Made by a program: the position numbers and the translations under genes. Below are positions 33,489 to 50,706 of a stretch of 62,435 nt of DNA, in pieces. Location of the stretch: assembly GCA_016223045.1 (NCBI GenBank), contig JACRPT010000037.1:1-62435 (forward strand), read 5' to 3'. Below the pieces are notes generated by a model that was not told the origin of the DNA, did no database searches, and saw only the letters and a program-made list of their open reading frames with translations. Within the stretch, counting starts at the first letter, position 1. Every line of letters begins with the position of its first letter. This stretch comes from Candidatus Eiseniibacteriota bacterium (GTDB lineage: Bacteria; Eisenbacteria; RBG-16-71-46).

Positions 33489-33492
33489 GCGC

Positions 33493-35489: not shown

Positions 35490-35517
35490 TTGCGCCATCC
35501 GGCGACAGCGATAGAAT
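35490..35517 (+). promoter_or_regulatory. Putative sigma-70-type promoter of the kinase/regulator operon
   Basis: TTGCGC (35490-35495), a 16-nt spacer, then TAGAAT (35512-35517). Confidence 0.45.
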
Positions 35518-35619
35518 GGCCCGTGAGCGCGACCTCTCGTCGCTCGCCGACCGGCCACCCCGCCGTTCCGATGTGCGCTCAGTGAGGGCGCCCGCCGCGC
35601 CGCTCTCGGGAGCAGAGCC

Positions 35620-37647
35620 ATGACCGACGCGCCCCCCAGCGGCCAGCGTTCCCGGCCCCCCCGGCGGGCCTCGCGCCTGCAGTTCGTGATCCCGGTCGTG
35701 GTTGTCTGTCTCGCGGCCGTCGTGGGCGGCTACCAGATCGTCGAGCGCACGCTGATCGCCCAGCGCGCGTCCACGGAGTCACTGGGCTTCCTCCAGATCA
35801 TCCGCGGCGTCGTCTTCTCCCTGCTCCTCGCGGGCCTCGGGGTCTGGTACCTGCTGCGCAGGAGCGTGCCGGTGTTCCCCTCCTCGCCCGCCGTGGAGGC
35901 GCCGCTCGTCCTCGCCGAAGTGGACGAGCGGGCCCGGCAGCACGCGCGGTGGTTCGTCCACGCCCGGTGGGTCGCGCTGGGCGTCATCCTCGGTCTCATC
36001 CTCATCGCCGGGCCGCTAGCGCGGATGCTGCCGGGCGCGACCCTGGTGCCGCTGCTCGCCTGGTGGGTCGTGCTCCTCGCCGCCAACCTGTGGTTCCACC
36101 GGTCGGTCGCCCGGGTGCGCTCGCCCGAGGGCCACATCATGGCCCAGGCGGTCGCGGACCTGGTCGTCCTCACCGGGCTGCTCAACGCGTCCGGCGGGAT
36201 CGAGAACCCGCTCTACCTCGCCTACATGTTCCACGTCATCATCGCGGCGGTCGTCCTGCCGAAGCGCAAGTCCCTGGCCGTCACCGCCGTGGCGCTGTCG
36301 CTGTTCCTCGCGCTGGTGGTGGGCGAGTCCGCGGACATCCTGCCTCACTACACGAACCAGCTCTTCCCTCATGCCTCGATCGCGGAGCTGGCGCACCAGC
36401 CGGCGAGCGGCCACGAGGACGGGGATCTTCTCCACGCCGCCCACGACCCTCTGTTCGTCACCGGCGAGGCCGGCTCGTTCGTCCTGATGCTCCTGCTCGC
36501 GTCCTGGCTGACGATGCTGGTCACCGACCGCCTGCGCCACAGCGAGGCGCGTCTCGAGCGGACGGCGCGCTCGGCCGTGCTTGAGCGGAAGCGCCTGGAG
36601 AGCGTGGTCCACTCGGCCAAGGTGGGGATGATCCTCCTCGACCCCGACCTCACCGTGCGCTGGGTCAGTCAGCTCGCGTCCGAGTGGCTGGAGTGGGACG
36701 CCTCGGTGATCGGCCGGCGGTGTCCGCTGTACGCCGCGGCCGGGGAGGGCGAGCCCGGCCCGGCCGCGCGCGTCCTCGAGAGCGGGCGGCCCGCCGAGAC
36801 GGAGCGCGCCGTGCCGGCCGCCGACGGCAGCCTGCGCTACTTCCGCCACATCGCCTCCCCGGTGCGCGACGGGACGGGACGGGTGGTGCAGGTGGTGGAG
36901 CTGGTGGAGGACGTCACCATGCGCCGCGCGCTGGAGGCGGAGGCCCTCCACGCCGGCAAGATGTCGGTGCTCGGCCGCATGGCCGCGGGCATCGCCCACG
37001 AGATCGGCAACCCGCTGTCGTCCATGGCCGCGCGGCTGCGGCTGATGGAGCAGAGCAGCGATGCCGAGTTCCTGAGCGGCAGCCTCGCCCTGCTCCAGGG
37101 GCAGGTGGACCGCATCGGGCGCATCGTGCACGGTGTCTCGGAATTCGCGCGGGTGCCGCGGCGGGAATGGACGACCCTGGAGGTGAACGCGGCGGTCGAA
37201 GAGGCGATGAGCGTCGCCGAGCTGGACCCGCGCGTCAACGGCATCGTGTTCCGCCGGGCGATGGCGGCACCCTCGCCGCTCATCCGCGGGGTGCGGGACC
37301 AGGTGGTGCAGGTGGTGCTCAACCTGCTGCTCAACGCCGCGGAGGCGACGTCGGGTCGCGGGACCATCGCGGTCGAGACCTCCCGGCGGCAGGGCGAGGT
37401 CGCGATCGCCGTGCAGGACTCCGGCGTCGGGATGGACGAGCAGGTCCGGACGAAGTTGTTCGAGCCGTTCTTCACGACGAAACCCAGGGGGACCGGGCTC
37501 GGCCTCTCGATCAGCTATGCGCTGGTCCACGCGCACGGGGGCCGCTTCCAGGTGGAGAGCGAGCCCGGCAGGGGCGCCCGGTTCGTCGTCCTGCTCCCGG
37601 CGGCCGAAGCGGTGGCGGCGGCCGGTGGCGCGGGAGTGAAGAGATGA
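35620..37647 (+). CDS. Membrane-bound sensor histidine kinase (multi-TM N-terminus, PAS-like region, HisKA, HATPase)
   Basis: H-box AAGIAHEIGNPLSSM. ATP-lid motifs DSGVGMD and GTGLGLSISYALV. About six N-terminal hydrophobic segments. Confidence 0.85.
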   Translation: MTDAPPSGQRSRPPRRASRLQFVIPVVVVCLAAVVGGYQIVERTLIAQRASTESLGFLQIIRGVVFSLLLAGLGVWYLLRRSVPVFPSSPAVEAPLVLAEVDERARQHARWFVHARWVALGVILGLILIAGPLARMLPGATLVPLLAWWVVLLAANLWFHRSVARVRSPEGHIMAQAVADLVVLTGLLNASGGIENPLYLAYMFHVIIAAVVLPKRKSLAVTAVALSLFLALVVGESADILPHYTNQLFPHASIAELAHQPASGHEDGDLLHAAHDPLFVTGEAGSFVLMLLLASWLTMLVTDRLRHSEARLERTARSAVLERKRLESVVHSAKVGMILLDPDLTVRWVSQLASEWLEWDASVIGRRCPLYAAAGEGEPGPAARVLESGRPAETERAVPAADGSLRYFRHIASPVRDGTGRVVQVVELVEDVTMRRALEAEALHAGKMSVLGRMAAGIAHEIGNPLSSMAARLRLMEQSSDAEFLSGSLALLQGQVDRIGRIVHGVSEFARVPRREWTTLEVNAAVEEAMSVAELDPRVNGIVFRRAMAAPSPLIRGVRDQVVQVVLNLLLNAAEATSGRGTIAVETSRRQGEVAIAVQDSGVGMDEQVRTKLFEPFFTTKPRGTGLGLSISYALVHAHGGRFQVESEPGRGARFVVLLPAAEAVAAAGGAGVKR

Positions 37648-38987
37648 GCGAACGCATCCTCCTCATTGATGACGAGGACATGTTCCGCGAGGACATGGCG
37701 AGCCTGCTGCGCCAGCAGGGCTTCGCCTGCCGCACCGCCGCCAGCGGCGAGGACGGCCTGCGCGCCGCCCAGGCCGAAGCGCCGGACCTGGTGCTCTGCG
37801 ACCTGGTCATGCCGGGCGCCGGCGGACTCGAGGTCGTGGGCCGGCTCGCCGCGCTCTACCCCGAGCTGCCGGTGATCGTCATCACCGCCTTCGGGACGCT
37901 CGAGACCGCCGTCGAAGCGTTCCGCAGCGGCGCCACCGACTACGTGCTCAAGCCGGTCGTCCCCGAGGACCTGCTGGGCAAGGTGGCCCGCTGCCTCGAG
38001 CACCGCCGACTGATGGGCGAGGTGCGCTACCTGCGCCGGGAGGTGTCCGAGGTCCGCGCCGGCGCACGCCTGGTTGGAACCAGCCCGGCCATGGAGGCGG
38101 TCCGCAGGCTGATCGCCCGGGTCGCCGCCGGCGACTCCACCGTGCTGATCCGCGGCGAGAGCGGCACCGGCAAGGAGCTCGTCGCCCGCGAGATCCACGA
38201 GGTCGGGCGGGGGCCCGATCGCCCGTGCGTCGCGGTCAACTGCGCGGCCGTCCCGCGGGACCTGTTCGAGAGCGAGCTCTTCGGGCACGTCCGGGGGGCG
38301 TTCACCGGAGCGGTGCGCGACCGGCCGGGCCTGTTCGAGGTGGCGTCCGAGGGCACGTTGTTCCTGGACGAGATCTCCGAGCTTCCGCTCGAGCTCCAGC
38401 CCAAGCTCCTGCGGGCGATCGAGCAGAAGGAGGTGCTGCGCGTGGGCGAGAGCCGAACCCGGCCGGCGCGGGCCCGGATCGTCGCGGCCACCCAGCGCGA
38501 TCTCCAGGCGGAAGTCGCCGCCGGGCGCTTCCGCGAGGACCTGTTCTTCCGCGTGCGCGTGGTGGAGATCGTGATCCCGCCCCTGCGCGAGCGCCGCGAG
38601 GACATCCCGCTGCTGGTGGAGCACTTCGTCCCGCGCCTCAATGCCCGGCTCAAGCGGCACATCCTGGGCGTGGACCAGGCCGCGATGCGCGCGCTGATGA
38701 GCGCGCCGTGGCGGGGCAACATCCGCGAGCTGGAGAACACCCTGGAACGCGCGATGCTGCTGACCGAGCACGAGTACGTCGGGGTCGGAGACCTCCCGGC
38801 CGAGCTGGCCGGCCGCGCGCACTCCGCGGAACTCTCCGATGACCTCCGCGCGGCGCTGAGCGCGTACGAGCGCGAGCACATCCGCCAGGTGCTGGCTACC
38901 ACCGGCGGGAACCGCGAAGAGGCGGCGCGGCGCATGGGCATCGACGTCTCCACGCTCTACCGCCGACTGAAGGCCCTCGACCTCTAG
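37644..38987 (+). CDS. Sigma-54-dependent response regulator (NtrC family enhancer-binding protein)
   Basis: ATGA overlap with the kinase stop. Receiver domain LLIDDE...LVLCDLVMPG. AAA+ Walker A GESGTGKE. GAFTGA motif. C-terminal Fis-type HTH EAARRMGIDVSTLYRRLK. Confidence 0.9.
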   Translation: MSERILLIDDEDMFREDMASLLRQQGFACRTAASGEDGLRAAQAEAPDLVLCDLVMPGAGGLEVVGRLAALYPELPVIVITAFGTLETAVEAFRSGATDYVLKPVVPEDLLGKVARCLEHRRLMGEVRYLRREVSEVRAGARLVGTSPAMEAVRRLIARVAAGDSTVLIRGESGTGKELVAREIHEVGRGPDRPCVAVNCAAVPRDLFESELFGHVRGAFTGAVRDRPGLFEVASEGTLFLDEISELPLELQPKLLRAIEQKEVLRVGESRTRPARARIVAATQRDLQAEVAAGRFREDLFFRVRVVEIVIPPLRERREDIPLLVEHFVPRLNARLKRHILGVDQAAMRALMSAPWRGNIRELENTLERAMLLTEHEYVGVGDLPAELAGRAHSAELSDDLRAALSAYEREHIRQVLATTGGNREEAARRMGIDVSTLYRRLKALDL

Positions 38988-39100
38988 CCCGCGCGGCCGG
39001 GCGCCCGCCAGGCCGCCTGCGGATCCGCCGCGCGGTGCACGGAACGGGCGGCGGCCCGTCCCCCGATGGCGCGGCCGCGGCCGCCACTTCGTCTCCGCCC

Positions 39101-39149
39101 CTCGCAGGTCTGCGAGTCGCGGGCCCCCCGGGTCTCGCAGATCTGCGAG
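39101..39149. promoter_or_regulatory. Two 16-bp palindromes 33 bp apart (candidate enhancer/UAS for the adjacent sigma-54 activator)
   Basis: CTCGCAGGTCTGCGAG (39101-39116) and the perfect palindrome CTCGCAGATCTGCGAG (39134-39149). Both sit inside a ~25-nt direct repeat, ~120-170 bp upstream of the -24/-12 element. Confidence 0.55.
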
Positions 39150-39269
39150 TCGCGGGCGCCGCGGCGGGCCGGCTCGCGCGCTCTCCCGCACGCCCCGGCG
39201 CTTCACTTCCCGGTGCGCGACCGCCACTTGTCGGGCCAGCTCCGCGACAACCCGCACCCGGCACGCGGG

Positions 39270-39285
39270 CGGCAGGGTCCTTGCG
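39270..39285 (+). promoter_or_regulatory. Sigma-54 (-24/-12) promoter candidate
   Basis: CGGCAG-GGTCC-TTGCG against consensus TGGCAC-N5-TTGCW. GG at 39271-39272 and GC at 39283-39284. A weaker overlapping GG-N10-GC starts at 39260. Confidence 0.55.
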
Positions 39286-39301
39286 TGGGCGCTGTGGCGC
39301 G

Positions 39302-39640
39302 ATGGAGCCGCAGAAGGCGGAAGGTCTGGCGCGCAGCCTGATCCAGGCCACGGAGCGCAGTTTTCGAAGCCACCTGGGCGAGCGGGCCAGGGACCGGGAC
39401 TTCATCGGCGAACTCTATCTCGGTCTCAGGCGAACGCTGGCCCAGCTCGATGATGCGGGAGTCCACGAGACGGAGAAGCGGCGCGGGATCGTGGACGAGC
39501 TCGCGCTCACCGCCTATCTCATCGCCGCGTCCCGGCACCCCGGCGCCCAGGTGGATCCGGAGTTGCTCGAGTCGCTGCGAGGCGCGATTGCCCGGGCCTT
39601 GTCGGGCACGGGGCAGACACCCACGGCGCCCGCGTCCTGA
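39302..39640 (+). CDS. Small helical hypothetical protein, first ORF after the sigma-54 promoter
   Basis: ATG 39302 lies only ~18 nt after the -12 GC. No family recognised. The upstream part of track ORF 39035.. contains the regulatory palindromes and is rejected. Confidence 0.4.
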   Translation: MEPQKAEGLARSLIQATERSFRSHLGERARDRDFIGELYLGLRRTLAQLDDAGVHETEKRRGIVDELALTAYLIAASRHPGAQVDPELLESLRGAIARALSGTGQTPTAPAS

Positions 39641-39688
39641 GCGGGAAGCGGCGCCGGGAAGTGCGAACCCGAACCAAGGAGCACGGCC

Positions 39689-40972
39689 ATGGAGGCATGG
39701 CGGAAGCAGCACCGGCTGGTTCTCCCCGTACTGCTGTTGTTCGTCCCCCTGCTGATCGGCGTGGTCAACTCGGCGCGAGCGATTCCCGCCTTCAGCCGCA
39801 AGTACCAGACCAGCTGCACCACCTGCCACTACGCGTTCCCGCAGCTGAACGCGTTCGGCAAGGCGTTCCGCAACAACGGCTACCGGTACCCGGGCGGGGA
39901 TGAGAACTTCCGCAAGGAGGAGCCGGTCAGCCTCGGCAGCGAAGCCTACAAGCAGGTCTGGCCCGACGCGATCTGGCCCTCCGACATCCCCGGGACGTCG
40001 CCCCTCGCGGTCCACGCCATCGGCCAGTACGAGATGAAGTTCCATCAGCCCGACAGCGTGGCCAGGTCCGTCTTCGAATTCCCCGGGGCGGTGGAGATCC
40101 TGTATGCGGGGACGCTGGGCGACAAGTTCTCCTTCTTCGGCGAGGTGGCCGTGGAGACGGAGGGAGGCGCGGTGGAGACCGGGTTCCCGTTTCGCCTGGA
40201 GCTGAACCAGCGCCCGGGCTTCAATGTCGTGCTCGGGAGCTTCGTCGTGGATCCCACGCCCGGCCATCGCAGCCTGATCCCCACCGAGTTCAACGTCTCC
40301 ATGCTGGAGAGCCGGAACGGCTGGATGCTGCACGAGGAGAAGCCCGGCCTCGAACTCTGGGGGGCGGGCAACGGCTCCGGCGGCAGGGGCGGATGGAAGT
40401 ACCAGGCGGGCGTGATGGAGGGGCAGGGAGGTGACGCCGGACGCGACAAGGACGTCTTCGCCCAGGTCACCTACAAGGTCGGCGGACTCGGGGAGCTGGG
40501 CGGGACCGAAGGGCAGGCCAGCCAGACCTCGGCGTTCTACCGCGACAACAGCGTGACGGTCGGCGGCTTCGTCAGCTCGGGGCGGGTCGGGGCGGACCTG
40601 TTCGCGGACAAGGAAGACCTCACCGTCGTGGCCGGCACGCTGGACGCCTGGTACGAGCGGGCGATCCTCAATGCCACGGCGATGAGCATGAACTCCCGAA
40701 TCGGCGGCACGCCGGACCGCAAGAGCCTCGCCTGGTACGCGCAGGGCCAGTATGTCATCTACCCCTGGCTGATCGGGCTGGCCCGCTACGAGTCCACCGA
40801 CGAGGACACGGACGATGCCGTGGATCCGCAGACGACGCTGATCCCCGCGGTGGCCGGCATGGTCCGGGCGAACGTCAAGCTGACGCTCCAGTACGTGCGC
40901 CCCATCAGCGACTACGACGCGCGCAAGGCAGACGAGGAGCGCGTGGTGGCGAAGCTCGACTTCAGTCTCTAG
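39689..40972 (+). CDS. Fused monohaem cytochrome c / outer-membrane beta-barrel protein, Cyc2-like
   Basis: AAGGAG lies before ATG 39689. Signal peptide, then IPAFSRKYQTSCTTCHYAFPQLNAFGKAFRNNGY with a single CxxCH. About 380 aa follow with alternating beta-strand-like pattern, Gly-rich loops, and C-terminus ...VAKLDFSL. Confidence 0.6.
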   Translation: MEAWRKQHRLVLPVLLLFVPLLIGVVNSARAIPAFSRKYQTSCTTCHYAFPQLNAFGKAFRNNGYRYPGGDENFRKEEPVSLGSEAYKQVWPDAIWPSDIPGTSPLAVHAIGQYEMKFHQPDSVARSVFEFPGAVEILYAGTLGDKFSFFGEVAVETEGGAVETGFPFRLELNQRPGFNVVLGSFVVDPTPGHRSLIPTEFNVSMLESRNGWMLHEEKPGLELWGAGNGSGGRGGWKYQAGVMEGQGGDAGRDKDVFAQVTYKVGGLGELGGTEGQASQTSAFYRDNSVTVGGFVSSGRVGADLFADKEDLTVVAGTLDAWYERAILNATAMSMNSRIGGTPDRKSLAWYAQGQYVIYPWLIGLARYESTDEDTDDAVDPQTTLIPAVAGMVRANVKLTLQYVRPISDYDARKADEERVVAKLDFSL

Positions 40973-40995
40973 CCGGGCACGGAGGGCGTGCCCGG
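40973..40995 (+). terminator. Perfect 9-bp stem / 5-nt loop hairpin immediately after the porin-cytochrome stop codon (intra-operon attenuator or stabiliser candidate)
   Basis: CCGGGCACG-gaggg-CGTGCCCGG, starting 1 nt after TAG 40970-40972. No U-tract. Confidence 0.35.
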
Positions 40996-41044
40996 ACACG
41001 TTCCCGCAGCATCGGCGAAGACTGCAGGAGGAGGGTATCGAGAC

Positions 41045-41635
41045 ATGAACGGCAGACTGGCAGTCCTTGTGCTGGCGGGCCTGTCGGCCATCGCGGCTCC
41101 CACGGTCGCCGGCACGATCAAGGGGAAGGTCGCGATCCCGCGGGCGAGGAGCCTCGCGAACATCGTGGTGTACGTGGAGAAGGCGCCCGGGGAGTTCCCC
41201 GCGCCGAAGCAGCACACGGTCATGGACCAGAAGAACCTCACCTTCGTGCCGCACGTGCAGCCGGTGGTGGTGGGAACGACGGTGGACTTCCTGAACAGCG
41301 ACCAGGTGCTGCACAACGTCTTCAGCCCCGACAAGTGCGCCAACAAGTTCAACCTGGGGACCTGGCCGAAGGGCGAGACGCGGTCGTTCACGTTCGACAA
41401 GGCCGGCTGCACCCCGGTGCTGCTGTGCAACGTCCATCCGGAGATGGAAGCGTTCGTCGTGGTGCTCCAGAACCCCTTCTTCGCCGTCACCGACAAGAGC
41501 GGGCTCTTCGCGATCCACAACGTGCCGGAGGGCAAGTACACGATCAAGGCGTGGAACCGGAAGTTCCTCGACGTGTCGCAGGAAGTCGCCGTGCCGAAGG
41601 ATGGCGAGGTTCCCTGCAATCTGGCGCTGAAGTAG
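41045..41635 (+). CDS. Periplasmic cupredoxin (type-1 blue copper protein) with an N-terminal carboxypeptidase-regulatory-like beta-sandwich
   Basis: Signal peptide MNGRLAVLVLAGLSAIAAPTVAG. Copper ligand candidates are His in VLHNVF and the amicyanin-like spacing C-N-V-H-P-E-M. Confidence 0.7.
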   Translation: MNGRLAVLVLAGLSAIAAPTVAGTIKGKVAIPRARSLANIVVYVEKAPGEFPAPKQHTVMDQKNLTFVPHVQPVVVGTTVDFLNSDQVLHNVFSPDKCANKFNLGTWPKGETRSFTFDKAGCTPVLLCNVHPEMEAFVVVLQNPFFAVTDKSGLFAIHNVPEGKYTIKAWNRKFLDVSQEVAVPKDGEVPCNLALK

Positions 41636-42279: not shown

Positions 42280-44703
42280 ATGAGCGCACTCAGCCGGCGC
42301 GAGTTCCTGACCACGCTCGGCGCCGCCGGCGTGGTGGCCGCCTCATCCGGATGGTTCACGCGCCGCCTGTTCGCCATGGCGGAGGAAGGCACGCTGCGGG
42401 CGCCGCGCGGCCCGGGCGTGGAACGCTGGGTGCCCACGCTGTGCCGCATGTGTCCGGCGGGGTGCGGGCTCCGGGTGCGGCTGGTGGACGGGCTGCCGGT
42501 GGGACTCGAAGGCGACCGCACGAACCCGCTGAGCGCCGGCGGCCTGTGTCCCGCGGGCTTCGCCGGACTTCAGGAGCTGGTGCACCCGGACCGGGTCCGC
42601 ACGCCGCTGCGTCGCGACGGGCCGCGCGGTTCGGGACGCTGGACCCCGGTCTCGTGGGATGAGGCGCTGGAGCAGATCGCGGCGCCACTCCGCGCGTCGC
42701 GGGCGGAGGGCCGGCCGCAGGCGTTCGCGGTGCTCGAACGGGGCGACTCCCCGCTCACGCTCTACTGGCTGGAGCGCGTGTTGCGCGCCCACGGCAGCCC
42801 GAACCTGGTGGTGGACGCCACGGGTGAGCCATGGCGCAGCGCGTGGGCGACCGTGGCCGGGACCGCGCGACCGCCGGCGCCCGATCTCGCGAACGCGGAC
42901 TTCGTCCTGAGCTTCGGCCACGAGTCGCTCGAGACCGACGGCCACCCGGTGTGGCAGACCAAGACCTGGGGTCGCCTGCGGGCGCCCATCGCCGCGCGCC
43001 AGGCGAGCGCCGCGTACGTCGGACCACGCATGTCGCCGACCGCGAACCATGCCGACCTGAAGGTGGCGGTGCGCCCGGGCACGGAAGCCATCATGGCCCT
43101 CGGCCTGGTCCACGTCCTGATCCTGGAGGACCTGGCGGACCGCTCGTTCCTCGACCGCTTGACCCGCGGCTATCACGACCGGCCCGGCGGCTCGGGCGCG
43201 GGAGGCGACGGCTTCGAGGCCTACGTGCGCAGCCGTTTCGGCCTCGAGGAGGTGAGCCGCCTCACCGGCGCCCCGGTCAGCGAGATCTTCCGCCTGGGAC
43301 GCGCCTTCGGCACGTCGCGGCGGCCGCTGGCGCTGGCCGGACCCGGCGCGCTCTCGGGGGAAATCGGGTTCGCCACCGCGATGGCGGTGATCGCCTTGAA
43401 CCTGGCGGTGGGGGCGATGGGGCGCACGGGCGGCTACGTGGCGTCGGGCGGCGCACCCCTCGACCTGCCGCCGCCAGAGGAGCCGGACCAGGTGGCGCGC
43501 CGTGGGCTCTCGTCCGCGCGGGTGGATGGCGCCGGATGGGCCACGCTCCCGCTGGTCCGCCAGAGCCCGGCCGGGTTGGCGGCGAACCTCGCCGCCCGGC
43601 GGCCCTACCCGCTGGAGGTGCTCCTCGTCCACGGCGTCAACCCGGTGCACGAGTGGCCGGGAGGAAAGACGATCGAAGAGGCGCTGGCCGCCGTGGGTCT
43701 GGTGGCGGTGGTCGGAGCGGTGGCGGACGAGACCGCCCGCGTCGCGGACCTGATCCTGCCGGAAGCGAGCTTCCTCGAGGCCTGGCAGATCCTGCCGCCG
43801 GCGACGGGGATCCCGTTCGACTACGCCGGCCTGCAGCAGCCGGTGTTGGAGCCGATCTACCAGAGCCGCGCCTTCGAGGACATGTGGTTCGACCTCGCCC
43901 GCCGCATCGGCGGCCCGGCGGCGGCGGCGGTCCCCGCGGGCAGCTACGCCGACTGGCTGCCGAGCGCCGCCGCCGGACTCCACCGCGCCGGCCGCGGGAC
44001 CATCGCGGGCGGACCGTTCCACGCGCGCGTCGCCGGCTTCATGGAGGAGCGCGGCTGGAAGGCCCCGGGCCCGCAGACGGCCGAGGCGTTCTGGGAGGAG
44101 TTCCGGCGGTCGGGCTCGTGGGTGGACGCGCCGCGCGGCGAGCACTCGCCTGCCGAGCTGCTCGGCGACCGCGCGGAGCGCTTCGACCTCTGGCCGGAGA
44201 GGCTGCTCGCCGACGCGCGGAAGCTGACCGGGACGCCGGTCGCGGACGACGCCCTCTACGGCGGCGCGCGGGCGGCGGCCGCGGGCGCGGCCGGCCATTC
44301 CGATCATCCTCTCCATCTCCTGCTCTTCGACACCAGCACGCTGTGGGCCGGCCGCACGGCGCTCACGCCGGTGCTGCTCGAGATGTCGGGATTCCGCGAG
44401 GACATCGGCTGGGACAGCTGGGTCGAGATCCACCCCGAGACCGCGCGGCGCGGACGGATCCAGGCCGGCGACCGCGTGCGGCTGGAGTCTCCCGCGGGGT
44501 CGCTCATCGCGCGCGCCCGGATCACCCCGGTGGTCCCCCCCGACGCGGTGGCCATGCCCCGCGGCCTCGGCCACCGCCACTTCGGCCGCTTCGCGACCGG
44601 CGTCGGCGTCAACCCGCTGGCACTGGTGGCTCCCGCCCTCGACCGCTGGACGGGCAACGCGATCCTCGAGACCCGCGTCCGGCTGACGCGGATGCCGGCG
44701 TAG
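42280..44703 (+). CDS. TAT-exported molybdopterin-oxidoreductase-family subunit (ActB1/QrcB/PsrA-like)
   Basis: Twin-arginine leader MSALSRREFLTTLGAAGVVAASSG. N-terminal 4Fe-4S motif CRMCPAGCG...GGLCPAG. MopB-like length and a C-terminal beta-barrel-type segment. Confidence 0.85.
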   Translation: MSALSRREFLTTLGAAGVVAASSGWFTRRLFAMAEEGTLRAPRGPGVERWVPTLCRMCPAGCGLRVRLVDGLPVGLEGDRTNPLSAGGLCPAGFAGLQELVHPDRVRTPLRRDGPRGSGRWTPVSWDEALEQIAAPLRASRAEGRPQAFAVLERGDSPLTLYWLERVLRAHGSPNLVVDATGEPWRSAWATVAGTARPPAPDLANADFVLSFGHESLETDGHPVWQTKTWGRLRAPIAARQASAAYVGPRMSPTANHADLKVAVRPGTEAIMALGLVHVLILEDLADRSFLDRLTRGYHDRPGGSGAGGDGFEAYVRSRFGLEEVSRLTGAPVSEIFRLGRAFGTSRRPLALAGPGALSGEIGFATAMAVIALNLAVGAMGRTGGYVASGGAPLDLPPPEEPDQVARRGLSSARVDGAGWATLPLVRQSPAGLAANLAARRPYPLEVLLVHGVNPVHEWPGGKTIEEALAAVGLVAVVGAVADETARVADLILPEASFLEAWQILPPATGIPFDYAGLQQPVLEPIYQSRAFEDMWFDLARRIGGPAAAAVPAGSYADWLPSAAAGLHRAGRGTIAGGPFHARVAGFMEERGWKAPGPQTAEAFWEEFRRSGSWVDAPRGEHSPAELLGDRAERFDLWPERLLADARKLTGTPVADDALYGGARAAAAGAAGHSDHPLHLLLFDTSTLWAGRTALTPVLLEMSGFREDIGWDSWVEIHPETARRGRIQAGDRVRLESPAGSLIARARITPVVPPDAVAMPRGLGHRHFGRFATGVGVNPLALVAPALDRWTGNAILETRVRLTRMPA

Positions 44704-44705
44704 CC

Positions 44706-45398
44706 ATGGCGCGCTGGGGGATGGTCATAGACCTCGACCGGTGCACCGGCTGCGGCGCCTGCGTCGCCGCCTGCAAGGTCGAGAACAACGTCCAGGTCGT
44801 CAGCCCCGCCGAGGGGGAGCGCGGGCGCCGGATGCACTGGCTGCGTCTCCTGGTCGAGGCGCGGGGCGAGTACCCGCACGTCGAGGTCCGCATCGCGCCG
44901 AACCTCTGCATGATGTGCGAGAACCCCCCGTGCACCAAGGTGTGTCCGGTGCACGCCACCTACCGCGGCGAGGACGGCCTGGTGGGCCAGATCTACCCGC
45001 GCTGCATCGGGTGCCGCTACTGCATGGCGGCCTGTCCCTACAGCGTCAAGGCATTCAACTGGGGCAGCCCCGAGTGGCCGGAGGCGCTCCTCTCCACCCT
45101 GAACCCGGACGTCTCGATGCGGCCCAAGGGCGTCGTGGAGAAGTGCACCTTCTGCTACCACCGGCTGCAGCTCGGCCGGGAGAAGGCGCGAGCCGAGGGA
45201 CGTCCGCTGCGCGAGTCGGATTACCAGCCGGCGTGCGTGCACAGCTGTCCGGCGGACGCCATGACCTTCGGCGACCTGGACGACGCGCTGAGCCCGGCCG
45301 CCCAGTTGAGCCGGAGCACGCGGGCGACGCGCGCCCTGGAGCACCTGGGCACCGAGCCGCGGGTGTTCTACCTGGAGAAGCGTGATGCGCCGCTTTGA
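44706..45398 (+). CDS. 4Fe-4S ferredoxin-type subunit (ActB2/QrcC/PsrB-like)
   Basis: Four cluster motifs: CTGCGACVAAC, CMMCENPPCTKVCP, CIGCRYCMAACP, CTFC...ACVHSCP. Confidence 0.9.
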   Translation: MARWGMVIDLDRCTGCGACVAACKVENNVQVVSPAEGERGRRMHWLRLLVEARGEYPHVEVRIAPNLCMMCENPPCTKVCPVHATYRGEDGLVGQIYPRCIGCRYCMAACPYSVKAFNWGSPEWPEALLSTLNPDVSMRPKGVVEKCTFCYHRLQLGREKARAEGRPLRESDYQPACVHSCPADAMTFGDLDDALSPAAQLSRSTRATRALEHLGTEPRVFYLEKRDAPL

Positions 45399-46731
45399 GC
45401 CGGACAGCACCCGGGACGAGACGCTGTTCCGCCCGATCGAGCAGACCGGCGCGAGGTTCTACCTCACGGTCTCGGTGCTGGTCGCGATCATCCTGTTCGC
45501 GCTCGTCATGTACACGCGCCAGGTGGTGCTGGGTCTCCGGGTCACCGGGATGATGCAGCCCGTGACCTGGGGGTTCTACATCGTCAACTTCGTCTTCTTC
45601 ATCGGCATCAGCCACGCCGGCACGCTGATTTCCGCGATCCTCCGCCTCACCCAGGCGGAGTGGCGACGCCCGATCACGCGCATGGCGGAGGTGATCACGG
45701 CCATCGTGCTGGCGATCGGCGCGCTCCATCCCATCCTCGACCTGGGACGGCCCGACCGGGTGATGAACGTCTTCCTGTTCGGGAGGCTGCAGTCGCCGCT
45801 GCTGTGGGACGTCACCAGCATCAGCGCCTACTTCGCCGCCAGCACCGTGTACCTGTTCCTGCCGCTGATCCCCGACATCGCGCTGATCCGGGAGCGCGGG
45901 AAGAAGCACCGCTGGCTCTACACGTTCATGTCCTGGGGCTGGCAGGGGACGCCCGAGCAGTGGAAGGTGCTGACCCGCGCCATCAACATCATGATGATCG
46001 TGGTGGTGCCCATCGCGGTGTCGGTGCACACGGTGATCTCGTACATCTTCGCGATGACGCTCCAGTCCGGCTGGCACAGCACGATCTTCGGGCCCTATTT
46101 CGTGGTGGGAGCCATCTTCTCCGGCATCGCCGCGCTGTTCGTGGCGATGATCGCGTTCCGGAGCGCCTTCCGCCTGCAGGCCTACCTCAAGCTCGTCCAC
46201 TTCCAGCAGCTCGCCAAGCTGCTGCTGGCCATGTCGATCCTGTGGACGTACTTCACCTTCGGCGAGTACCTGACGGGCTACTACGGCGGCGAGCCGGAGG
46301 AGATGAAAACCCTGCTCTACAAGGTCGCCGGCCGCTACGCCCCGCTGTTCTGGACCATGGTGGTCTGCAACTTCGTGGTCCCGGTGGTGCTGCTGAGCTC
46401 CCGGCGGTTGCGCACGATCCCGGGGATCCTGGTCTCCTCGATCACGGTGCTGATCGGGATGTGGCTCGAGCGGCTGATCATCGTGGTGCCCAGCCTGGAG
46501 AACCCGCGCATGCCGTTCCCGGGCCGCATCTACATCCCGAGCCTGACCGAGATCAGCCTGTTCACCGGGGCGCTGGCGCTGTTCGCGCTCGGCTTCGTGC
46601 TGTTCTCCAAGTTCTTCCCGATCGTGTCGGTGTGGGAGGTCCAGGAAGGGCGGGCGCTGGGCAAGGAGGAGACGGTGGAGCGCGTGGAATCGTACCTGCC
46701 CGACGACGAGGTGTCCCATGCGGGCGCCTGA
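45382..46731 (+). CDS. NrfD/PsrC-type integral membrane quinone-interacting subunit (ActC/QrcD-like)
   Basis: About 10 hydrophobic segments. N-terminal ...WGFYIVNFVFFIGISHAGTLISAILRL is typical of the NrfD family. It overlaps the FeS gene by 17 nt. Confidence 0.85.
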   Translation: MMRRFEPDSTRDETLFRPIEQTGARFYLTVSVLVAIILFALVMYTRQVVLGLRVTGMMQPVTWGFYIVNFVFFIGISHAGTLISAILRLTQAEWRRPITRMAEVITAIVLAIGALHPILDLGRPDRVMNVFLFGRLQSPLLWDVTSISAYFAASTVYLFLPLIPDIALIRERGKKHRWLYTFMSWGWQGTPEQWKVLTRAINIMMIVVVPIAVSVHTVISYIFAMTLQSGWHSTIFGPYFVVGAIFSGIAALFVAMIAFRSAFRLQAYLKLVHFQQLAKLLLAMSILWTYFTFGEYLTGYYGGEPEEMKTLLYKVAGRYAPLFWTMVVCNFVVPVVLLSSRRLRTIPGILVSSITVLIGMWLERLIIVVPSLENPRMPFPGRIYIPSLTEISLFTGALALFALGFVLFSKFFPIVSVWEVQEGRALGKEETVERVESYLPDDEVSHAGA

Positions 46732-46987
46732 CCCGCACGCGCCGTCCTGGCATCCGCGGGGCATCCGGGTGCTGCAGATCCTGTCCATCGTGCTGATGTG
46801 GGCGTTCCTGGGCGGGGTCGTGGCGTGGATGGTGAACGTGGTGCAGCTCTCGCTGTCCCTCGGCGACGCGCTCACGGTCTCGGTGGGCATCAGCCTGGTG
46901 GTGATCCCGGTCTACACCCTGGTCGCCGGCGTGCTGACCTACGTCTTCTTCGGCCTCCAGCGGGGCCGGCGGGATCCGGAGAGCTGA
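46718..46987 (+). CDS. Small two-TM membrane protein (possible accessory subunit)
   Basis: Two hydrophobic helices. Overlaps the NrfD-type gene at its 5' end and is coupled to the next gene by TGATG. Confidence 0.45.
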   Translation: MRAPDPHAPSWHPRGIRVLQILSIVLMWAFLGGVVAWMVNVVQLSLSLGDALTVSVGISLVVIPVYTLVAGVLTYVFFGLQRGRRDPES

Positions 46988-48192
46988 TGCGCACGACCGG
47001 GGCACGGTGCCGAGCGGGCTGCCGCCAGCGGGCCGCCCGCGTGGCCCGGGCCATCGGGCTCGTCGCGGCATGGATGATGTTCGTCCCGGGCGAGATCCGG
47101 GCGACGACGCCCGGGCGCTTCCCGGACGTGGCGGCCGGCCAGGCGCTGATCCAGCAGAAGGGCTGCGCCAACTGCCACGGCGTCCTGGGATCGGGCGGGC
47201 GCCAGGGGCCCGACCTGCTGCGGATCGCGCGGGGCAAGGGCGCGGCGGCGCTGCTGGCCGACATGTGGAACCACGTCCCGCAGATGGTGGCCGCACTGCT
47301 GACCGGGGAGCGGCTGCCCGCGCTCTCGGCAGGAGAGCTGCGCGACCTGGTCGGATACCTCAACTTCGTCAACTACCTCGGTGACCCCGGGGACGCCGGG
47401 CGCGGCGGCGCGGCGCTGGCCCAGATGCCGTGCCTGGCGTGTCATGACCTCGGCCAGCGCGGGAAGATCGGGCCGGCGCTGATGGTCTCCACCCGGGCGG
47501 CGTCCCCGGTCGGGCTGGTGACGGACCTGTGGAACTATTACCCGGGCATGCACGCGGCGCTCCGGGAGCGCGGTCTGCCGTGGTTCGCCTGGAGCGGGGA
47601 TCTGCTGACCGACCTCTCACGCTACCTGGCGTCGCTGGCGCCGGCGGGCAGCCCCGCGCCGCTGCTGGCGCCGGGGGATCCGCAGGAAGGGAGCCGCGTG
47701 TTCGCTCGCATCGGCTGCGAGCGATGCCACGGCCCATCGGGCGCGGGCGCCTGGGCCGCGCTGCTGCGCAGATCGAACGCCCGGAGCGCCGCCGAGAACG
47801 GCGCCGCGCTGCTCGGGCACCTGCCCGCGATCGGCGGGGGCGCCGCGGACGCCCTGCGCCCGCTGTCCGAGAAGGACATGGCGGACCTGCTCGCCTACCT
47901 GAGCCTCGCCGGCACGGAGGTGCCGGGCGGGGACGCGCGCGCCGGCCGCGAAGTGTTCGCGCGTGACCGGTGCGGCACTTGCCACGCGCTCCCCGGCCGC
48001 AAGCCCGGCATCGGACGCGACGTGCAGGACATGCCCGCGATCGGGGACCCGTACGACGTGGCCGCGCTGATGCTGCAGCACGCACGCAACATGAAGACGG
48101 CCACGGAACTCAAGCACGTCCCGTGGCCGCAGATAAGGCCCGATGAGCTGCTGGACCTGTATGCCTTCCTCGCCAGCCAGCCGCGCCGCTAG
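46987..48192 (+). CDS. Tetrahaem protein built from four class-I-like cytochrome c domains
   Basis: CANCH, CLACH, CERCH, CGTCH. N-terminal hydrophobic anchor. Confidence 0.75.
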   Translation: MRTTGARCRAGCRQRAARVARAIGLVAAWMMFVPGEIRATTPGRFPDVAAGQALIQQKGCANCHGVLGSGGRQGPDLLRIARGKGAAALLADMWNHVPQMVAALLTGERLPALSAGELRDLVGYLNFVNYLGDPGDAGRGGAALAQMPCLACHDLGQRGKIGPALMVSTRAASPVGLVTDLWNYYPGMHAALRERGLPWFAWSGDLLTDLSRYLASLAPAGSPAPLLAPGDPQEGSRVFARIGCERCHGPSGAGAWAALLRRSNARSAAENGAALLGHLPAIGGGAADALRPLSEKDMADLLAYLSLAGTEVPGGDARAGREVFARDRCGTCHALPGRKPGIGRDVQDMPAIGDPYDVAALMLQHARNMKTATELKHVPWPQIRPDELLDLYAFLASQPRR

Positions 48193-48202
48193 CGGCGCTC
48201 GT

Positions 48203-50236
48203 GTGAGCGGCGCGCGGGCGGGCGCGGTGCGTGGACTACGGCGCGCGCGCCGGGCGCTCGCGCTGCCGGCGGGCGCGGTGCGTGGGCTGGGGCGCGTGCG
48301 CCGGACGCTCGCGCTGCTGGCGATGGCCGTGGCTCTGGCCGGTTGCGGTCGCGCCGTGGAACAGCGCGGGACGGACCCGCAGGGCGGCGCCGCGGCGCTC
48401 CCCGCGGTGCTGGTCAACGACTCCCTGAGCGTCGAGGACCGCTGCATCGCCTGCCACCGCGGCGTGCTCGATCCGCGACACAAGCTGGACCCGCAGCCCC
48501 TCACCACTCATCCGGGACGCCTGCTCGACATCCACTCCCCGCTGCGCTTCGGCTGCACCTCCTGCCACGGCGGCGACGGCGGCGCGGCCGGCGTCCGCGA
48601 GACGCACGGGGCCTGCTCGAGCCGGCTGGGATTCCTCGTCGGCGACGCCGCCGAGATCGCCTGCGGCAAGTGCCACCTGAACGAGGTCGAGCTCGACGGC
48701 GCGCCCCGCCTGAGTCACGGCCGCGCGCTGCTCCGCCGTTCCCACTGCGACGGGTGCCACGAGATCGGGGAGGCCGCCCGGAGCGGGCAGCCCGGACCGG
48801 ACCTCGCCGGGATCGCGCGGCGCACCAACCCGTCCTGGCTGTTCCGCTGGCTCAAGAATCCGCGCGACTACGCGGACAACGCCCGCATGCCGCGCTACCA
48901 GCTCGAGGACCGCTACGTGGACGCGCTGGTGGGGTACCTGATGACGTTCCGCGGCGAGGCTCCGTTCGACACCACCGCCTTCCCGCCGGGAGACGCGGAG
49001 CGCGGGAAGAACCTGGTGCGGCTCTCCTTCTGCATCAGCTGCCACGCCATCGAGGGCAAGGGCGGCAGGGACGCCATCGATCTGGGGCGCGTGGGGAACA
49101 AGCTCACGCGTGGCTGGATGCTCCGGCTGCTCTCCGACACGCACGGCGCCGACCCCTCCAGCCCGATGCCGCAGTACCGCTTCACGCCCGCGCAGGTGGC
49201 GGATGTCGCCGCCTACTTCCGGGAGGAGCTCACCGATCCGTCGTTCGAAGGGGTCGAGGCCGATTCCGCGCTGGACAGGCTCGGCGCCTGGTGGCCCGAC
49301 GAGGCGCGGCGCGTGGATGTCGGACGGCGCCTGTTCAAGGAGCTGCGCTGCGGCAACTGCCACGCCTTCCCCGGCGGCGAGGGCTGGATCCGCGTGGCGC
49401 CGATCCTCTCGCGGCTGGGCGAGAAGAAGACCTCCGATCTCCCCTGGGGCACGACGCGGTTCGCGCGCACGCTGGAGGACTACGTGTGGCGCAAAGTGGA
49501 GAACCCGCTGGTCTTCGCCACCGCGCCGCATCGCTTCAAGATGCCCACGTACGACTTCACGCCGGAGGAGGCGCGGGACGCGACCATCGCGCTGCTCGCT
49601 CAGGCCGACCTGCCGGTGCTCCCGGAGGCCTTCGTCGTGCGCGACTCGACCGACGCGGCGCTGCCCCTGCCGGGCGAGTTCGGGCGCCTGGTGCGCCGGT
49701 ACCGCTGCCTCTCCTGCCACTCGGTGAACGGGATCGGGCACAACATCTCCTACGATCTCGGGGCGGAAGGCAGCCGGGCGCAGCGGGACTGGATCTACCA
49801 GTACTTGAAGCTCCCCTACACCATCCGGCCGATCCTCACCGTGCGGATGCCGATCTTCAACCTCACCGACGAGGAGGCGCGGATCCTCGCGGATGGCATC
49901 GCCGACTCGTGGCGGGATGCGCGGGCGGATTCGGCGGGCGATTTCCCCGCGGGGCCGCGCGAGCTGGAGGCCGGCCGCAGGCTGTTCGAGCGCAGCGGCT
50001 GCCGGAGCTGCCACCAGGTGGGTGCGACGGGCGGCTACGTCGGCCCGAGCTTCACCAGCGGCACGCCGATGGCCCGCAGGCTACGACGCGGATGGATCGT
50101 GCGCTGGCTGCAGAACCCGCAGGCGATCAAGCCCGACGTGCTGGAGCCGCGCTACGGCTTCTCGGAGGCCGAGGCGCGGGCGCTCGCCGCCTACCTCATG
50201 ACGCTCGGCCCGACCGGGGAAGGGAGCGCGCGATGA
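48203..50236 (+). CDS. Octahaem c-type cytochrome lipoprotein
   Basis: Lipobox LAMAVALAGC. Eight CxxCH motifs: CIACH, CTSCH, CGKCH, CDGCH, CISCH, CGNCH, CLSCH, CRSCH. The start is uncertain; GTG candidates at 48203, 48227 and 48278. Confidence 0.75.
   Translation: MSGARAGAVRGLRRARRALALPAGAVRGLGRVRRTLALLAMAVALAGCGRAVEQRGTDPQGGAAALPAVLVNDSLSVEDRCIACHRGVLDPRHKLDPQPLTTHPGRLLDIHSPLRFGCTSCHGGDGGAAGVRETHGACSSRLGFLVGDAAEIACGKCHLNEVELDGAPRLSHGRALLRRSHCDGCHEIGEAARSGQPGPDLAGIARRTNPSWLFRWLKNPRDYADNARMPRYQLEDRYVDALVGYLMTFRGEAPFDTTAFPPGDAERGKNLVRLSFCISCHAIEGKGGRDAIDLGRVGNKLTRGWMLRLLSDTHGADPSSPMPQYRFTPAQVADVAAYFREELTDPSFEGVEADSALDRLGAWWPDEARRVDVGRRLFKELRCGNCHAFPGGEGWIRVAPILSRLGEKKTSDLPWGTTRFARTLEDYVWRKVENPLVFATAPHRFKMPTYDFTPEEARDATIALLAQADLPVLPEAFVVRDSTDAALPLPGEFGRLVRRYRCLSCHSVNGIGHNISYDLGAEGSRAQRDWIYQYLKLPYTIRPILTVRMPIFNLTDEEARILADGIADSWRDARADSAGDFPAGPRELEAGRRLFERSGCRSCHQVGATGGYVGPSFTSGTPMARRLRRGWIVRWLQNPQAIKPDVLEPRYGFSEAEARALAAYLMTLGPTGEGSAR
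48220..48321 (+). repeat. In-frame 51-nt tandem duplication inside the leader-peptide region of the octahaem cytochrome gene
   Basis: Copy 48220-48270 (GAVRGLRRARRALALPA) and copy 48271-48321 (GAVRGLGRVRRTLALLA), about 44/51 identical by hand alignment. Confidence 0.8.
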
Positions 50237-50706
50237 ACCGCGCGCGACGGTGGAGCGCCGCGGCCGCACTGCTCCTCGCGGCGGCCTCCGTGCTGCCCGG
50301 CTGCGGTCCGCGCCGGGGCGGACGCGCCGAGCCCGCGCGCGCCGACTCGAGCTTCGCCGCGGTCACCTACCGGCGGGACAAGTCGCCCGAGGCGCTGTCG
50401 CTGGCACGGGGGCGCGTGCTCTACGACCGCTACTGCGCCATCTGCCACGGCGAGGCGGGCGGCGGCGACGGCTTCAACGCCTACAACGTGAAGGCCGCAT
50501 TCGACGTCTCCCCGACCGCGTTCACCGATTCGGTGACCTTCGGCGCGCTGCGCGAGGACACGGCGCTGGCCGCGATCCGCGACGGCGGGCCCGCGGTCGG
50601 CAGGTCGCCGGCGATGCCGCCGTGGGGACACACGCTCACGGCCGGCGAGGTCGTGGACGTGTGGGCCTACATCAAGGCCCTTTCGCGCGCGGCGCCCGGG
50701 GAGTAG
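50233..50706 (+). CDS. Monohaem class-I cytochrome c lipoprotein
   Basis: ATGA overlap with the preceding stop. Lipobox SVLPGCG. CAICHG, with distal Met context SPAMPPWG. Confidence 0.75.
   Translation: MNRARRWSAAAALLLAAASVLPGCGPRRGGRAEPARADSSFAAVTYRRDKSPEALSLARGRVLYDRYCAICHGEAGGGDGFNAYNVKAAFDVSPTAFTDSVTFGALREDTALAAIRDGGPAVGRSPAMPPWGHTLTAGEVVDVWAYIKALSRAAPGE

Follow-up and report, generated by a model that had tools for sequence, protein, structure and literature searches.

Metagenome studies rely mainly on Cyc2 as the genetic marker of microbial iron oxidation. By what route do electrons pass from Cyc2 to the quinone pool, and what does the protein do outside the known iron oxidizers? Both questions are raised by an operon on a contig of a Candidatus Eiseniibacteriota bacterium (GCA_016223045.1, contig JACRPT010000037.1, positions 1-62,435 of the forward strand; the whole 62,435-nucleotide stretch is referred to here as the window). 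The operon, at 35620-50706, begins with a two-component system and goes on to encode a Cyc2-like cytochrome-porin, a copper protein, a quinone-interacting module and several cytochromes c. On balance, and with modest confidence, we think that this single sigma-54/two-component operon encodes an electron chain between the cell surface and the menaquinone pool, with Fe(II) oxidation as its likeliest activity. The window operon is the minority, Qrc-like version of an operon family that extends across FCB-group phyla and Acidobacteriota.

Cyc2 is defined by the motif AXPXFAR[Q/K][T/Y] upstream of a single CXXCH, by a PXL motif four residues downstream, by a fused 16-strand porin and by a minimum length of 365 residues (PMC8406198). 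Wherever a Cyc2 protein has been studied biochemically, it has proved to be an Fe(II) oxidase, and the single heme in a narrow pore is expected to handle dissolved species only (PMC8406198). The standing model for acidophilic and neutrophilic iron oxidizers and for Ca. Tenderia passes electrons from Cyc2 to a periplasmic carrier and then to alternative complex III (ACIII) or bc1. In Acidithiobacillus ferrooxidans, the scheme comprises outer-membrane Cyc2, a periplasmic cupredoxin with c cytochromes, and a bc1 complex run in reverse.

Results

The window has a G+C content of about 73%, and its open reading frame (ORF) lists are swamped by spurious frames. Genes were called by third-position GC (GC3). 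The operon consists of 13 genes, all on the + strand and all with the GC3 signature of real genes (Table 1). Junctions between them measure -56 to +112 bp, except for a 311-bp promoter region, and the products carry 19 CxxCH motifs in total (1+5+4+8+1). The original prediction had described 13 co-directional, tightly packed genes, 19 CxxCH motifs and a window that lacks a terminal oxidase or reductase. All three points were borne out, the first by GC3 and junction lengths and the second by a recount, whereas the predicted start at 35490 has to be moved to 35620, where the first gene begins. The genes around the operon are unrelated to it: some encode peptidases, others form an arginine operon, and an AIR-synthase-like gene lies on the opposite strand. 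The nearest genomes are Candidatus Eisenbacteria metagenome-assembled genomes (MAGs), whose Cyc2-like genes are 72% (L001), 69% (L003) and 63% (L002) identical to that of the window.

Judged by sequence and by a structural model, the product of the fourth gene belongs to the Cyc2 fused cytochrome-porin superfamily, and Fe(II) oxidase activity is predicted for it. Its N terminus reads ...SARAIPAFSRKYQTSCTTCHYAFPQLNAFG..., with a single CxxCH at residue 43 following a hydrophobic leader or signal peptide, and its length exceeds the 365-residue minimum. The complete motif is AIPAFSRKY-x3-CTTCH-x3-PQL. The PXL element is present as CTTCH-YAF-PQL, and both P51 and L53 are invariant in 41 homologs. 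Same-operon orthologs from other phyla (e.g. P0046, P0051 and P0058) show FARKY unaltered. When 185,579 species genomes were scanned at the DNA level for the exact motif at this spacing, at least 120 stretches were returned, and among the matches listed were Mariprofundus, a zetaproteobacterium and Acidithiobacillus, the Mariprofundus and Acidithiobacillus reference genes being identified by organism name and motif only. Since these genes have the same spacing, we regard the motif spacing of the window protein as canonical. A profile of the window subfamily scored 58, 57 and 38 bits on the Mariprofundus, zetaproteobacterial and Acidithiobacillus genes, respectively, mainly in the cytochrome domain, as is typical of the Cyc2 family. 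Chlorobium/Chlorobiaceae loci encode proteins that align at full length, with 34-36% identity over residues 1-411.

The protein had no match in Pfam or NCBIfam. An AlphaFold2 model based on 41 homologs (mean pLDDT 72.9, heme domain unmodeled) predicts a barrel at residues 106-426, with pLDDT mostly between 80 and 95 and 17 DSSP strand elements, which correspond to about 16 strands. Foldseek matched the model to the 16-strand porins Omp32, OmpU, OmpC and OprP (rank 16) with E values of 2e-10 to 7e-9. These structure matches were generic porins only, with no solved Cyc2 structure among them. The Cyc2-like porin-cytochrome of the original prediction is thus supported by its motif, by the barrel model and by homology to the Cyc2-motif genes of iron oxidizers; barrel prediction and Cyc2 similarity are both present. 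The subfamily comprises 1121 matches that share 45-55% identity between phyla, a level unusually high for an outer-membrane barrel. In an exhaustive scan, 2246 clusters at 50% identity were found at E <= 1e-3 and 203 at E <= 1e-30. A conserved N-terminal region (residues 30-103, 39689-40000) reaches about 55 residues past the published Cyc2 motif and reads NAFGKAFxNNGYRYPGGD...VWPDAIWPSDIPG; counted from the heme motif, about 70 residues are nearly invariant between phyla. Neither a second His nor a Met is invariant in this region, so that it offers no candidate for a distal heme ligand.

The strongest available argument that the operon connects to the quinone pool came from a comparison of 81 loci, of which 79 are from species-representative genomes (profile-guided scan) and two are the metagenome contigs L004 and L007. 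Loci were scored by tblastn with the 13 window proteins and four proteins of locus L167. The same gene order was first seen in four orthologous contigs, among them one that is Eisenbacteria-like, one from a Calditrichaeota MAG and one from a hot spring. The 79 genome loci come from Eisenbacteria, Ignavibacteria, Bacteroidota, Calditrichota, Latescibacterota, Zixibacteria, Glassbacteria/Gemmatimonadota, Fidelibacterota, Acidobacteriota, Deferrimicrobium and Chlorobiaceae. Their conserved core runs from the kinase and sigma-54 activator through Cyc2 and cupredoxin to a variable slot, and then to the octaheme and monoheme cytochromes. Cupredoxin adjoins Cyc2 in 67 of the 81 loci, which are nearly all of the non-Chlorobiaceae loci with enough sequence, and the two final cytochromes are kept in most loci that reach far enough downstream.

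What changes is the slot. In 42 loci its occupants are a GltD-like flavoprotein, a Rieske protein and split cytochrome b, and in nine a Qrc-like module (Eisenbacteria L001, L004 and L164; Calditrichota L151 and L152; Bacteroidetes L143; and L147, L153 and L159). Both modules are present in one locus (L007) and neither in seven, four of which are Chlorobiaceae; the remaining 22 are too short to judge. Assignment of the majority version is illustrated by L167:11967-15845, where Pfam recognizes a GltD-like protein (Fer4_20 + Pyr_redox_2 + Fer4), Rieske and split cytochrome b. Because two unrelated quinone-interacting complexes alternate in one slot, the slot would connect the carrier chain to the quinone pool, and the interchange with Rieske/cytochrome b suggests that the Qrc-like set acts as a complex-III analog and not as a substrate reductase. 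The original idea of a conduit to the quinone pool is strengthened by this result. A survey of gene order and habitat had also been proposed; the core does recur in related MAGs, and the habitats of the loci are rich in iron: fluids of the DeMMO deep mine (L129 and L143 derive from the DeMMO MAG set), vent chimneys sampled as MAGs at SWIR (Dive96), sediment of Rifle-type aquifers and the Stordalen fen. Published surveys of these samples had recorded Cyc2 homologs in the same MAGs or phyla.

Two loci show unusual arrangements. In the hot-spring contig (L007:11262-21245), the two modules stand in series after Cyc2 and cupredoxin, together with an extra dihemic cytochrome and, between the Fe-S and NrfD genes, a Phenol_MetA_deg-like outer-membrane-type protein. 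In an Eisenbacteria MAG from a black-smoker chimney (L164:10001-21311), the cluster from cupredoxin to monoheme cytochrome lies on the opposite strand and converges on a Cyc2 gene of 45% identity, which suggests a second Cyc2 paralog or a rearrangement.

Anammox bacteria have Rieske/cytochrome b complexes with an NAD(P) oxidoreductase subunit. The majority operon version (L167) may resemble the anammox complexes R/b-2 and R/b-3 in its GltD-like flavoprotein, Rieske protein, split cytochrome b and octaheme cytochrome c. By this analogy, the GltD-like flavoprotein hints at a link to NAD(P)H. The module is absent from the window, however, and is relevant here solely as the alternative occupant of the slot.

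The gene after Cyc2 encodes a periplasmic copper protein. When it is aligned with amicyanins and with the C-terminal cupredoxin of NirK, the His of its VLHNV sequence and its LLCNVHPEM loop coincide with their type-1 copper ligands. This ligand His is invariant in 68 of 68 aligned sequences (the window protein and 67 orthologs), while Cys, His and Met are kept in 67 of the 68. The Pfam Copper-bind score is sub-threshold (18.4 against a cut-off of 21.2). A blue-copper protein had been predicted and its type-1 ligand set was confirmed, but a CarboxypepD_reg-type beta-sandwich, which Pfam places C-terminal to the cupredoxin domain, had gone unmentioned. Among the cytochromes at the other end of the operon, the octaheme protein probably starts some tens of codons downstream of 48143. 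Its orthologs are 31-54% identical and follow either type of quinone module. Orthologs of the monoheme lipoprotein end the operon in most loci.

The genes at 41748-46731 have the order of qrcABCD (multiheme c, MopB, Fe-S, NrfD), although all of the Qrc-like subunits score under the NCBIfam equivalog cut-offs. The best NCBIfam models were QrcA (68 bits against a cut-off of 180), QrcB (241 against 440) and QrcC (285 against 400); for the NrfD subunit, DsrP (108 bits) was ahead of QrcD (40 bits, cut-off 570). Below QrcB, the MopB subunit matched PhsA (217 against 694) and ArrA (163 against 1600). Among solved structures, its best matches were ArrA (E = 3.5e-51) and PsrA (E = 4.8e-38), and similarity to the ActB chains 8k9e, 6lod, 6f0k and 6btm was partial (E = 2e-12 to 3.5e-4). 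The original description of this set as ACIII/Qrc-like holds in that a quinone module with a depleted Mo site is supported, but the module is Qrc-like rather than ACIII-like.

Pairwise alignments show that the Mo-ligand Cys of ArrA (SSVCAEA) and PsrA (VSLCTAP) has no counterpart in the window MopB, which reads VDATGEPW. In a 22-sequence family alignment, this segment is hypervariable with indels, whereas every sequence retains the twin-arginine motif and all four FS0 cysteines (CX2CX3CX27C). MopB thus appears to be a scaffold without molybdopterin catalysis that keeps one [4Fe-4S] cluster. Identity between phyla in the same operons is 33-41% for MopB, 60-70% for the Fe-S subunit and 69-74% for NrfD, and the contrast between a poorly conserved MopB and its well conserved partners fits a non-catalytic scaffold. 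MopB also trails the Cyc2 barrel protein (45-55%) in conservation.

The 89-residue membrane protein is specific to the Qrc-like operon version, with homologs of 36-49% identity in all of the longer Qrc-type loci; it had no Pfam match, ActD included. Stand-alone modules without Cyc2 were also seen (L205:5284-14866, L207:4659-16939 and L206:8215-14979), each made up of a c7-type cytochrome, a MopB with the cluster motif, an Fe-S protein, NrfD and a class-I multiheme cytochrome. Those of L205 and L207 have their own sigma-54 two-component systems and further multiheme cytochromes, and that of Terriglobia (L206) has an ActD-family gene after NrfD. Since a class-I multiheme cytochrome follows NrfD in the stand-alone L205 and L207 modules, we assign the tetraheme cytochrome of the window to the quinone module.

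Control by a two-component system and sigma-54 had been predicted and is supported by Pfam domains and by site conservation in Eisenbacteria. The receiver, Sigma54_activat (E = 2e-65) and HTH_8 domains of the activator are all above the Pfam cut-offs, and GAFTGA is visible in its translation. The activator start overlaps the kinase stop by 4 bp, and the L004 ortholog of the kinase is of equal length. In other phyla the kinase carries a dCache domain, as opposed to the membrane/PAS domain of the window protein. Considered alone, the palindromes and -24/-12 patterns upstream of the small ORF are at chance level, as shuffled sequences give 0.8 and 2.0 matches per window. Both palindrome copies are nevertheless kept in the aligned Eisenbacteria loci L001, L003 and L004, and the -24/-12 element is kept in L001 and nearly so in L004. 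Together, the sites hold their relative position in other Eisenbacteria loci (n=3) despite diverged surrounding intergenic sequence. The palindromes and GGCAGGGTCCTTGC are therefore probably an enhancer, to which the activator is presumed to bind, and a -24/-12 promoter. The sites that had been predicted are thus real and conserved in Eisenbacteria, but do not exceed chance by themselves. A strict TGGCAC-N5-TTGCW search allowing up to two mismatches found a site upstream of cyc2 in 15 of the 79 genome loci. With strict sites scarce outside Eisenbacteria, we claim promoter conservation only within this group, and the general case for sigma-54 rests on the adjacency of the activator gene, which in 53 of the 81 loci is no more than about 12 kb away from Cyc2, usually directly upstream. 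Terminator and sigma-70 scans were uninformative.

The small ORF that follows the promoter is the weakest call in the operon. The ORF itself is present, as had been predicted, but its coding status is uncertain given its GC3; it had no Pfam or NCBIfam match, and its sole homolog among the loci compared is in L003 (51%). In other phyla, a gene for a single-domain CheY-like receiver takes this position (e.g. L167:9554-9946).

Table 1. Genes and candidate regulatory sites of the operon, in order along the window.
Feature	Coordinates	Strand	Description	Basis
Sensor histidine kinase	35620-37647	+	About 6-7 N-terminal membrane helices; PAS, HisKA, HATPase_c	Hydropathy, Pfam
NtrC-type sigma-54 activator	37644-38987	+	Receiver, AAA+ Sigma54_activat with GAFTGA, HTH_8	Pfam
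Two palindromes, TCGCAG-NN-CTGCGA	39102-39115 and 39135-39148		TCGCAGGTCTGCGA and TCGCAGATCTGCGA; candidate activator-binding enhancer	
-24/-12 sigma-54 promoter-like element	39271-39284	+	GGCAGGGTCCTTGC	Pattern search
Small ORF	39299-39640	+	113 aa; coding status uncertain	GC3 0.84
Cyc2-type fused monoheme cytochrome c/16-strand outer-membrane porin	39689-40972	+	427 aa	Motif, model, homology
Periplasmic type-1 copper protein	40988-41635, likely start 41045	+	Amicyanin-like C-x2-H-x2-M loop	Pfam, PDB alignments
Pentaheme c3/c7-type cytochrome	41748-42260	+	QrcA/ActA position; signal peptide or possible lipobox	Five CxxCH, Pfam Cytochrome_C7
MopB-family subunit	42205-44703, probable start 42277 (MSALSRREFL)	+	TAT-exported	Pfam
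Four-cluster Fe-S subunit	44706-45398	+	QrcC/DsrO/PsrB type	Cysteine groups 4+4+4+4, Pfam Fer4 families
Membrane quinone-interacting subunit	45382-46731	+	NrfD/PsrC type, about 10 helices	Pfam NrfD E = 3e-33, hydropathy
Membrane protein	46718-46987	+	89 aa, 2-3 helices	GC3 0.96, hydropathy
Tetraheme cytochrome	46984-48192	+	Four class-I cytochrome c domains	Four CxxCH, Pfam Cytochrom_C and Cytochrome_CBB3
Octaheme cytochrome	48143-50236	+	Four c3/c7-like hemes, then four class-I domains	Eight CxxCH, Pfam
Monoheme class-I cytochrome c lipoprotein	50233-50706	+	LPGC lipobox; last gene	Sequence, Pfam

Discussion

The components of the operon span the outer membrane (Cyc2), the periplasm (the copper protein and 18 further hemes) and the inner membrane (NrfD). 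Based on this parts list, we propose that the outer-membrane Cyc2-type porin-cytochrome exchanges electrons with soluble extracellular species, most likely by oxidizing dissolved Fe(II). The blue-copper protein and the tetra-, octa- and monoheme cytochromes would carry electrons over the periplasm, and a Qrc/ACIII-type complex (pentaheme cytochrome, MopB, Fe-S, NrfD and the small membrane subunit) would couple these carriers to quinone/quinol. Electrons from Fe(II) would thus enter a high-potential pool of copper protein and cytochrome c, from which they could pass to a terminal oxidase or reductase encoded elsewhere. The complex-III-type module would exchange electrons with the quinone pool and, when needed, might drive them 'uphill' on the proton-motive force. 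Fe(II) oxidation is ranked first because all tested Cyc2 proteins oxidize Fe(II) and because the narrow pore suits dissolved species.

Several points weigh against this proposal. What the analysis shows directly is gene content, motifs, fold, synteny and the interchange of modules; complex formation, co-transcription, the Fe(II) substrate and the direction of flow are, like the function of the operon as a whole, predictions from these. A GGCW-N6-TTGC site was found upstream of cyc2 in only 12 of the 79 loci (background 0.017 per 700 nt). The window has no terminal oxidase, reductase or carbon-fixation gene, and the carrier lineages, presumed to be heterotrophs, have no obvious need for an 'uphill' branch. 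Rieske centers, class-I cytochromes and copper proteins would suit ordinary quinol-to-oxidase respiration equally well. For MopB, the absence of Mo is deduced from the sequence; an Asp/Glu near the Mo site is conserved within Eisenbacteria, and arsenite oxidase shows that a protein ligand to Mo is not obligatory. The AIPAFSRKY of the window protein has Ser where the published strict filter requires Ala, and its similarity to zetaproteobacterial Cyc2 is mainly in, or confined to, the cytochrome domain. Finally, Cyc2 homologs are present in many organisms that are not iron oxidizers, and membership in the Cyc2 family does not prove Fe(II) oxidase activity (Keffer 2021, PMC8406198).

The alternative that survives best is that the same chain runs outward, from menaquinol through NrfD and the Fe-S subunit to the hemes and copper protein, and through Cyc2 to a soluble extracellular acceptor of fairly high potential, for instance humic quinones, Mn(III) or chelated Fe(III). 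The module has its own class-I tetraheme cytochrome, like the quinol-oxidizing ACIII and unlike Qrc, and it swaps with Rieske/cytochrome b, whose usual direction is quinol oxidation. Its carriers, inferred heterotrophs, come from anoxic or suboxic iron-rich sediments and aquifers, and Qrc-type and ACIII-type complexes are reversible and coupled to membrane potential (PMC6303296). On the other hand, every Cyc2 with a biochemical test is an Fe(II) oxidase (PMC8406198), and one heme in a narrow 16-strand pore cannot reach solid Fe(III). The potentials of copper and Rieske proteins are also generally too positive for ferrihydrite-type minerals, and the operon lacks a surface multiheme cytochrome of the MtrC/OmcS type. 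We therefore consider outward flow unlikely, while giving it more weight than the two readings that follow.

We find it still less likely that the operon encodes an ordinary complex-III equivalent for aerobic or denitrifying respiration, with the Cyc2-like porin as an accessory for Fe2+ detoxification, metal uptake or sensing. FCB bacteria ordinarily have ACIII or bc-type complexes that pass electrons to a cupredoxin or cytochrome c, and the stand-alone modules of L205 and L207, in which c7-type cytochrome, MopB, FeS, NrfD and tetraheme cytochrome occur without Cyc2, would fit such a role. Against it, Cyc2 and cupredoxin are the most constant and best conserved members of the operon across phyla, and they stay together when one quinone module replaces the other. 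Nor would one expect a housekeeping complex III to have a sensor kinase and a sigma-54 activator of its own. The proposal that MopB, FeS and NrfD form a catalytic Psr/Phs/Arr-type reductase (of polysulfide, thiosulfate, arsenate or similar) with accessory cytochromes is highly improbable and was rejected, for although ArrA and PsrA are the best solved-structure matches and the protein keeps the TAT signal, the FS0 cluster and 'ADLILP'-type MopB motifs, it lacks the Mo-ligand Cys at a site that is hypervariable, the PhsA and ArrA models score far under their cut-offs with QrcB best and no clustering with the catalytic enzymes, MopB is the least conserved subunit, no TorD-type chaperone is encoded and Rieske/cytochrome b fills the slot in most orthologous operons.

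The preferred reading, a chain from Cyc2 to the quinone pool, has parallels in several known systems. Like the rus/petI operons of A. ferrooxidans (Cyc2, Cyc1, rusticyanin and aa3 oxidase, with a reverse bc1), the window operon leads from Cyc2 through a cupredoxin and c cytochromes to a complex-III-type module. In contrast to rus/petI, it combines all parts except the terminal oxidase in one operon, uses a Qrc-like module (Rieske/cytochrome b in relatives), is predicted to be regulated by a sigma-54 two-component system, and has a cupredoxin with an amicyanin-like loop and an extra beta-sandwich domain. The window protein also shares with the Cyc2 iron oxidases (A. ferrooxidans Cyc2, M. ferrooxydans Cyc2PV-1 and Leptospirillum Cyt572; PMC8406198) a signal peptide, one N-terminal CXXCH, AXPXF(A/S)RKY with equal spacing, PXL four residues on, a length of about 430 residues and a 16-strand porin. 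It differs from them in belonging to a distinct subfamily whose unusually long conserved N-terminal region is near-invariant between phyla, in its Ser for Ala, in being carried by presumed heterotrophs of the FCB group and Acidobacteriota, and in having an activity predicted from sequence.

The quinone module resembles QrcABCD of Desulfobacterota (PMC6303296, PMC13059093) in its gene order, in the best NCBIfam models for three of four subunits, in a MopB without a catalytic Mo ligand and in its periplasm-facing topology. Unlike QrcABCD, it scores under the equivalog cut-offs, has an extra small membrane subunit and a class-I tetraheme cytochrome, and is not near genes for cytochrome c3, hydrogenase or formate dehydrogenase. 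QrcB is described as cofactor-free (PMC13059093), whereas the window MopB keeps its CX2CX3CX27C cluster site. The ACIII-like act cluster actA-B1-B2-C-D-E-F of neutrophilic iron oxidizers, which has been proposed to link Cyc2 electrons to quinones (Kato et al. 2015, PMC4643136), likewise has a pentaheme cytochrome, an NrfD-type subunit and a MopB-type B1 with CX2CX3CX27C that is split from the Fe-S protein B2. In contrast to that cluster, the window encodes a single NrfD-type subunit, with ActF missing, has no match to ActD in Pfam and shows weak, partial similarity to solved ActB chains; in iron oxidizers, act has not been reported to be fused in one operon with cyc2. The module also differs from ACIII proper (ActABCDEF), since MopB and the Fe-S protein are encoded by separate genes instead of a fused ActB, and one NrfD is present instead of two (ActC and ActF).

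Eisenbacteria had been described in the original prediction as a lineage not known for this physiology. This is partly right, but Cyc2 homologs have already been reported by FeGenie-type surveys in Eisenbacteria, Calditrichota, Gemmatimonadota, Ignavibacteriales, Zixibacteria and others (PMC9769843, PMC8478452), and the MAGs behind L164 and L173 are listed as Cyc2 carriers (PMC9769843). New here are the recurring core and the module interchange among the 81 related loci of FCB phyla and Acidobacteriota. In the searchable full-text literature, a scope outside which subscription journals fall, we came upon no account of the operon, of the cupredoxin that accompanies its Cyc2, of control by sigma-54 or of the interchange of Rieske and Qrc-like modules. 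Two published clusters, one of ACIII type (PMC10732223) and one of Rieske/Nap genes in Caldithrix (PMC5317091), are distinct from it.

The operon bears on both questions posed at the outset, as it ties Cyc2 to a specific copper protein, to cytochromes and to a complex-III-type module under one dedicated regulator, and dozens of species from iron-rich vents, sediments and subsurface habitats have these genes linked in the same way. A cyc2 match in FCB or Acidobacteriota phyla is thus best read together with its operon. More tentatively, heterotrophic FCB and Acidobacteriota may share this modular sigma-54-Cyc2-cupredoxin-complex III-type-octaheme operon, with its interchangeable quinone modules, as their principal means of electron exchange with dissolved iron; we regard this wider proposal as possible rather than probable. 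If it is true, the operon would provide an undescribed but widespread route by which electrons from extracellular Fe(II) enter the quinone pool and perhaps also the NAD(P)H pool, and it would explain the abundance of Cyc2 homologs in lineages never seen oxidizing iron. Confirmation of the function would add to the organisms that are held to cycle iron in sediments, soils and aquifers. The operon also offers a testable list of parts, namely the partner proteins, a regulator with an inducing signal to seek and a natural swap between Qrc-like and Rieske/cytochrome b modules.

Neighboring genes

The operon region is flanked by genes for two proteins of about 1000 residues with a zinc carboxypeptidase M14 domain, at 32323-35406 (+) and 54691-57687 (-). 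Further upstream are other secreted-peptidase-like genes, which encode a PPC-domain protein (10181-13489), a reprolysin/FG-GAP protein (13509-16775) and a BNR/FlgD_ig-tailed protein (17082-19772). The arginine biosynthesis operon (22070-30745) begins with the gene for the ArgR repressor, and within it the gene for argininosuccinate lyase (27538-29700) also encodes a fused GNAT acetyltransferase domain. A small ORF at 31541-31984 has a weak HEPN (SAV_6107-like) match slightly under the Pfam cut-off.

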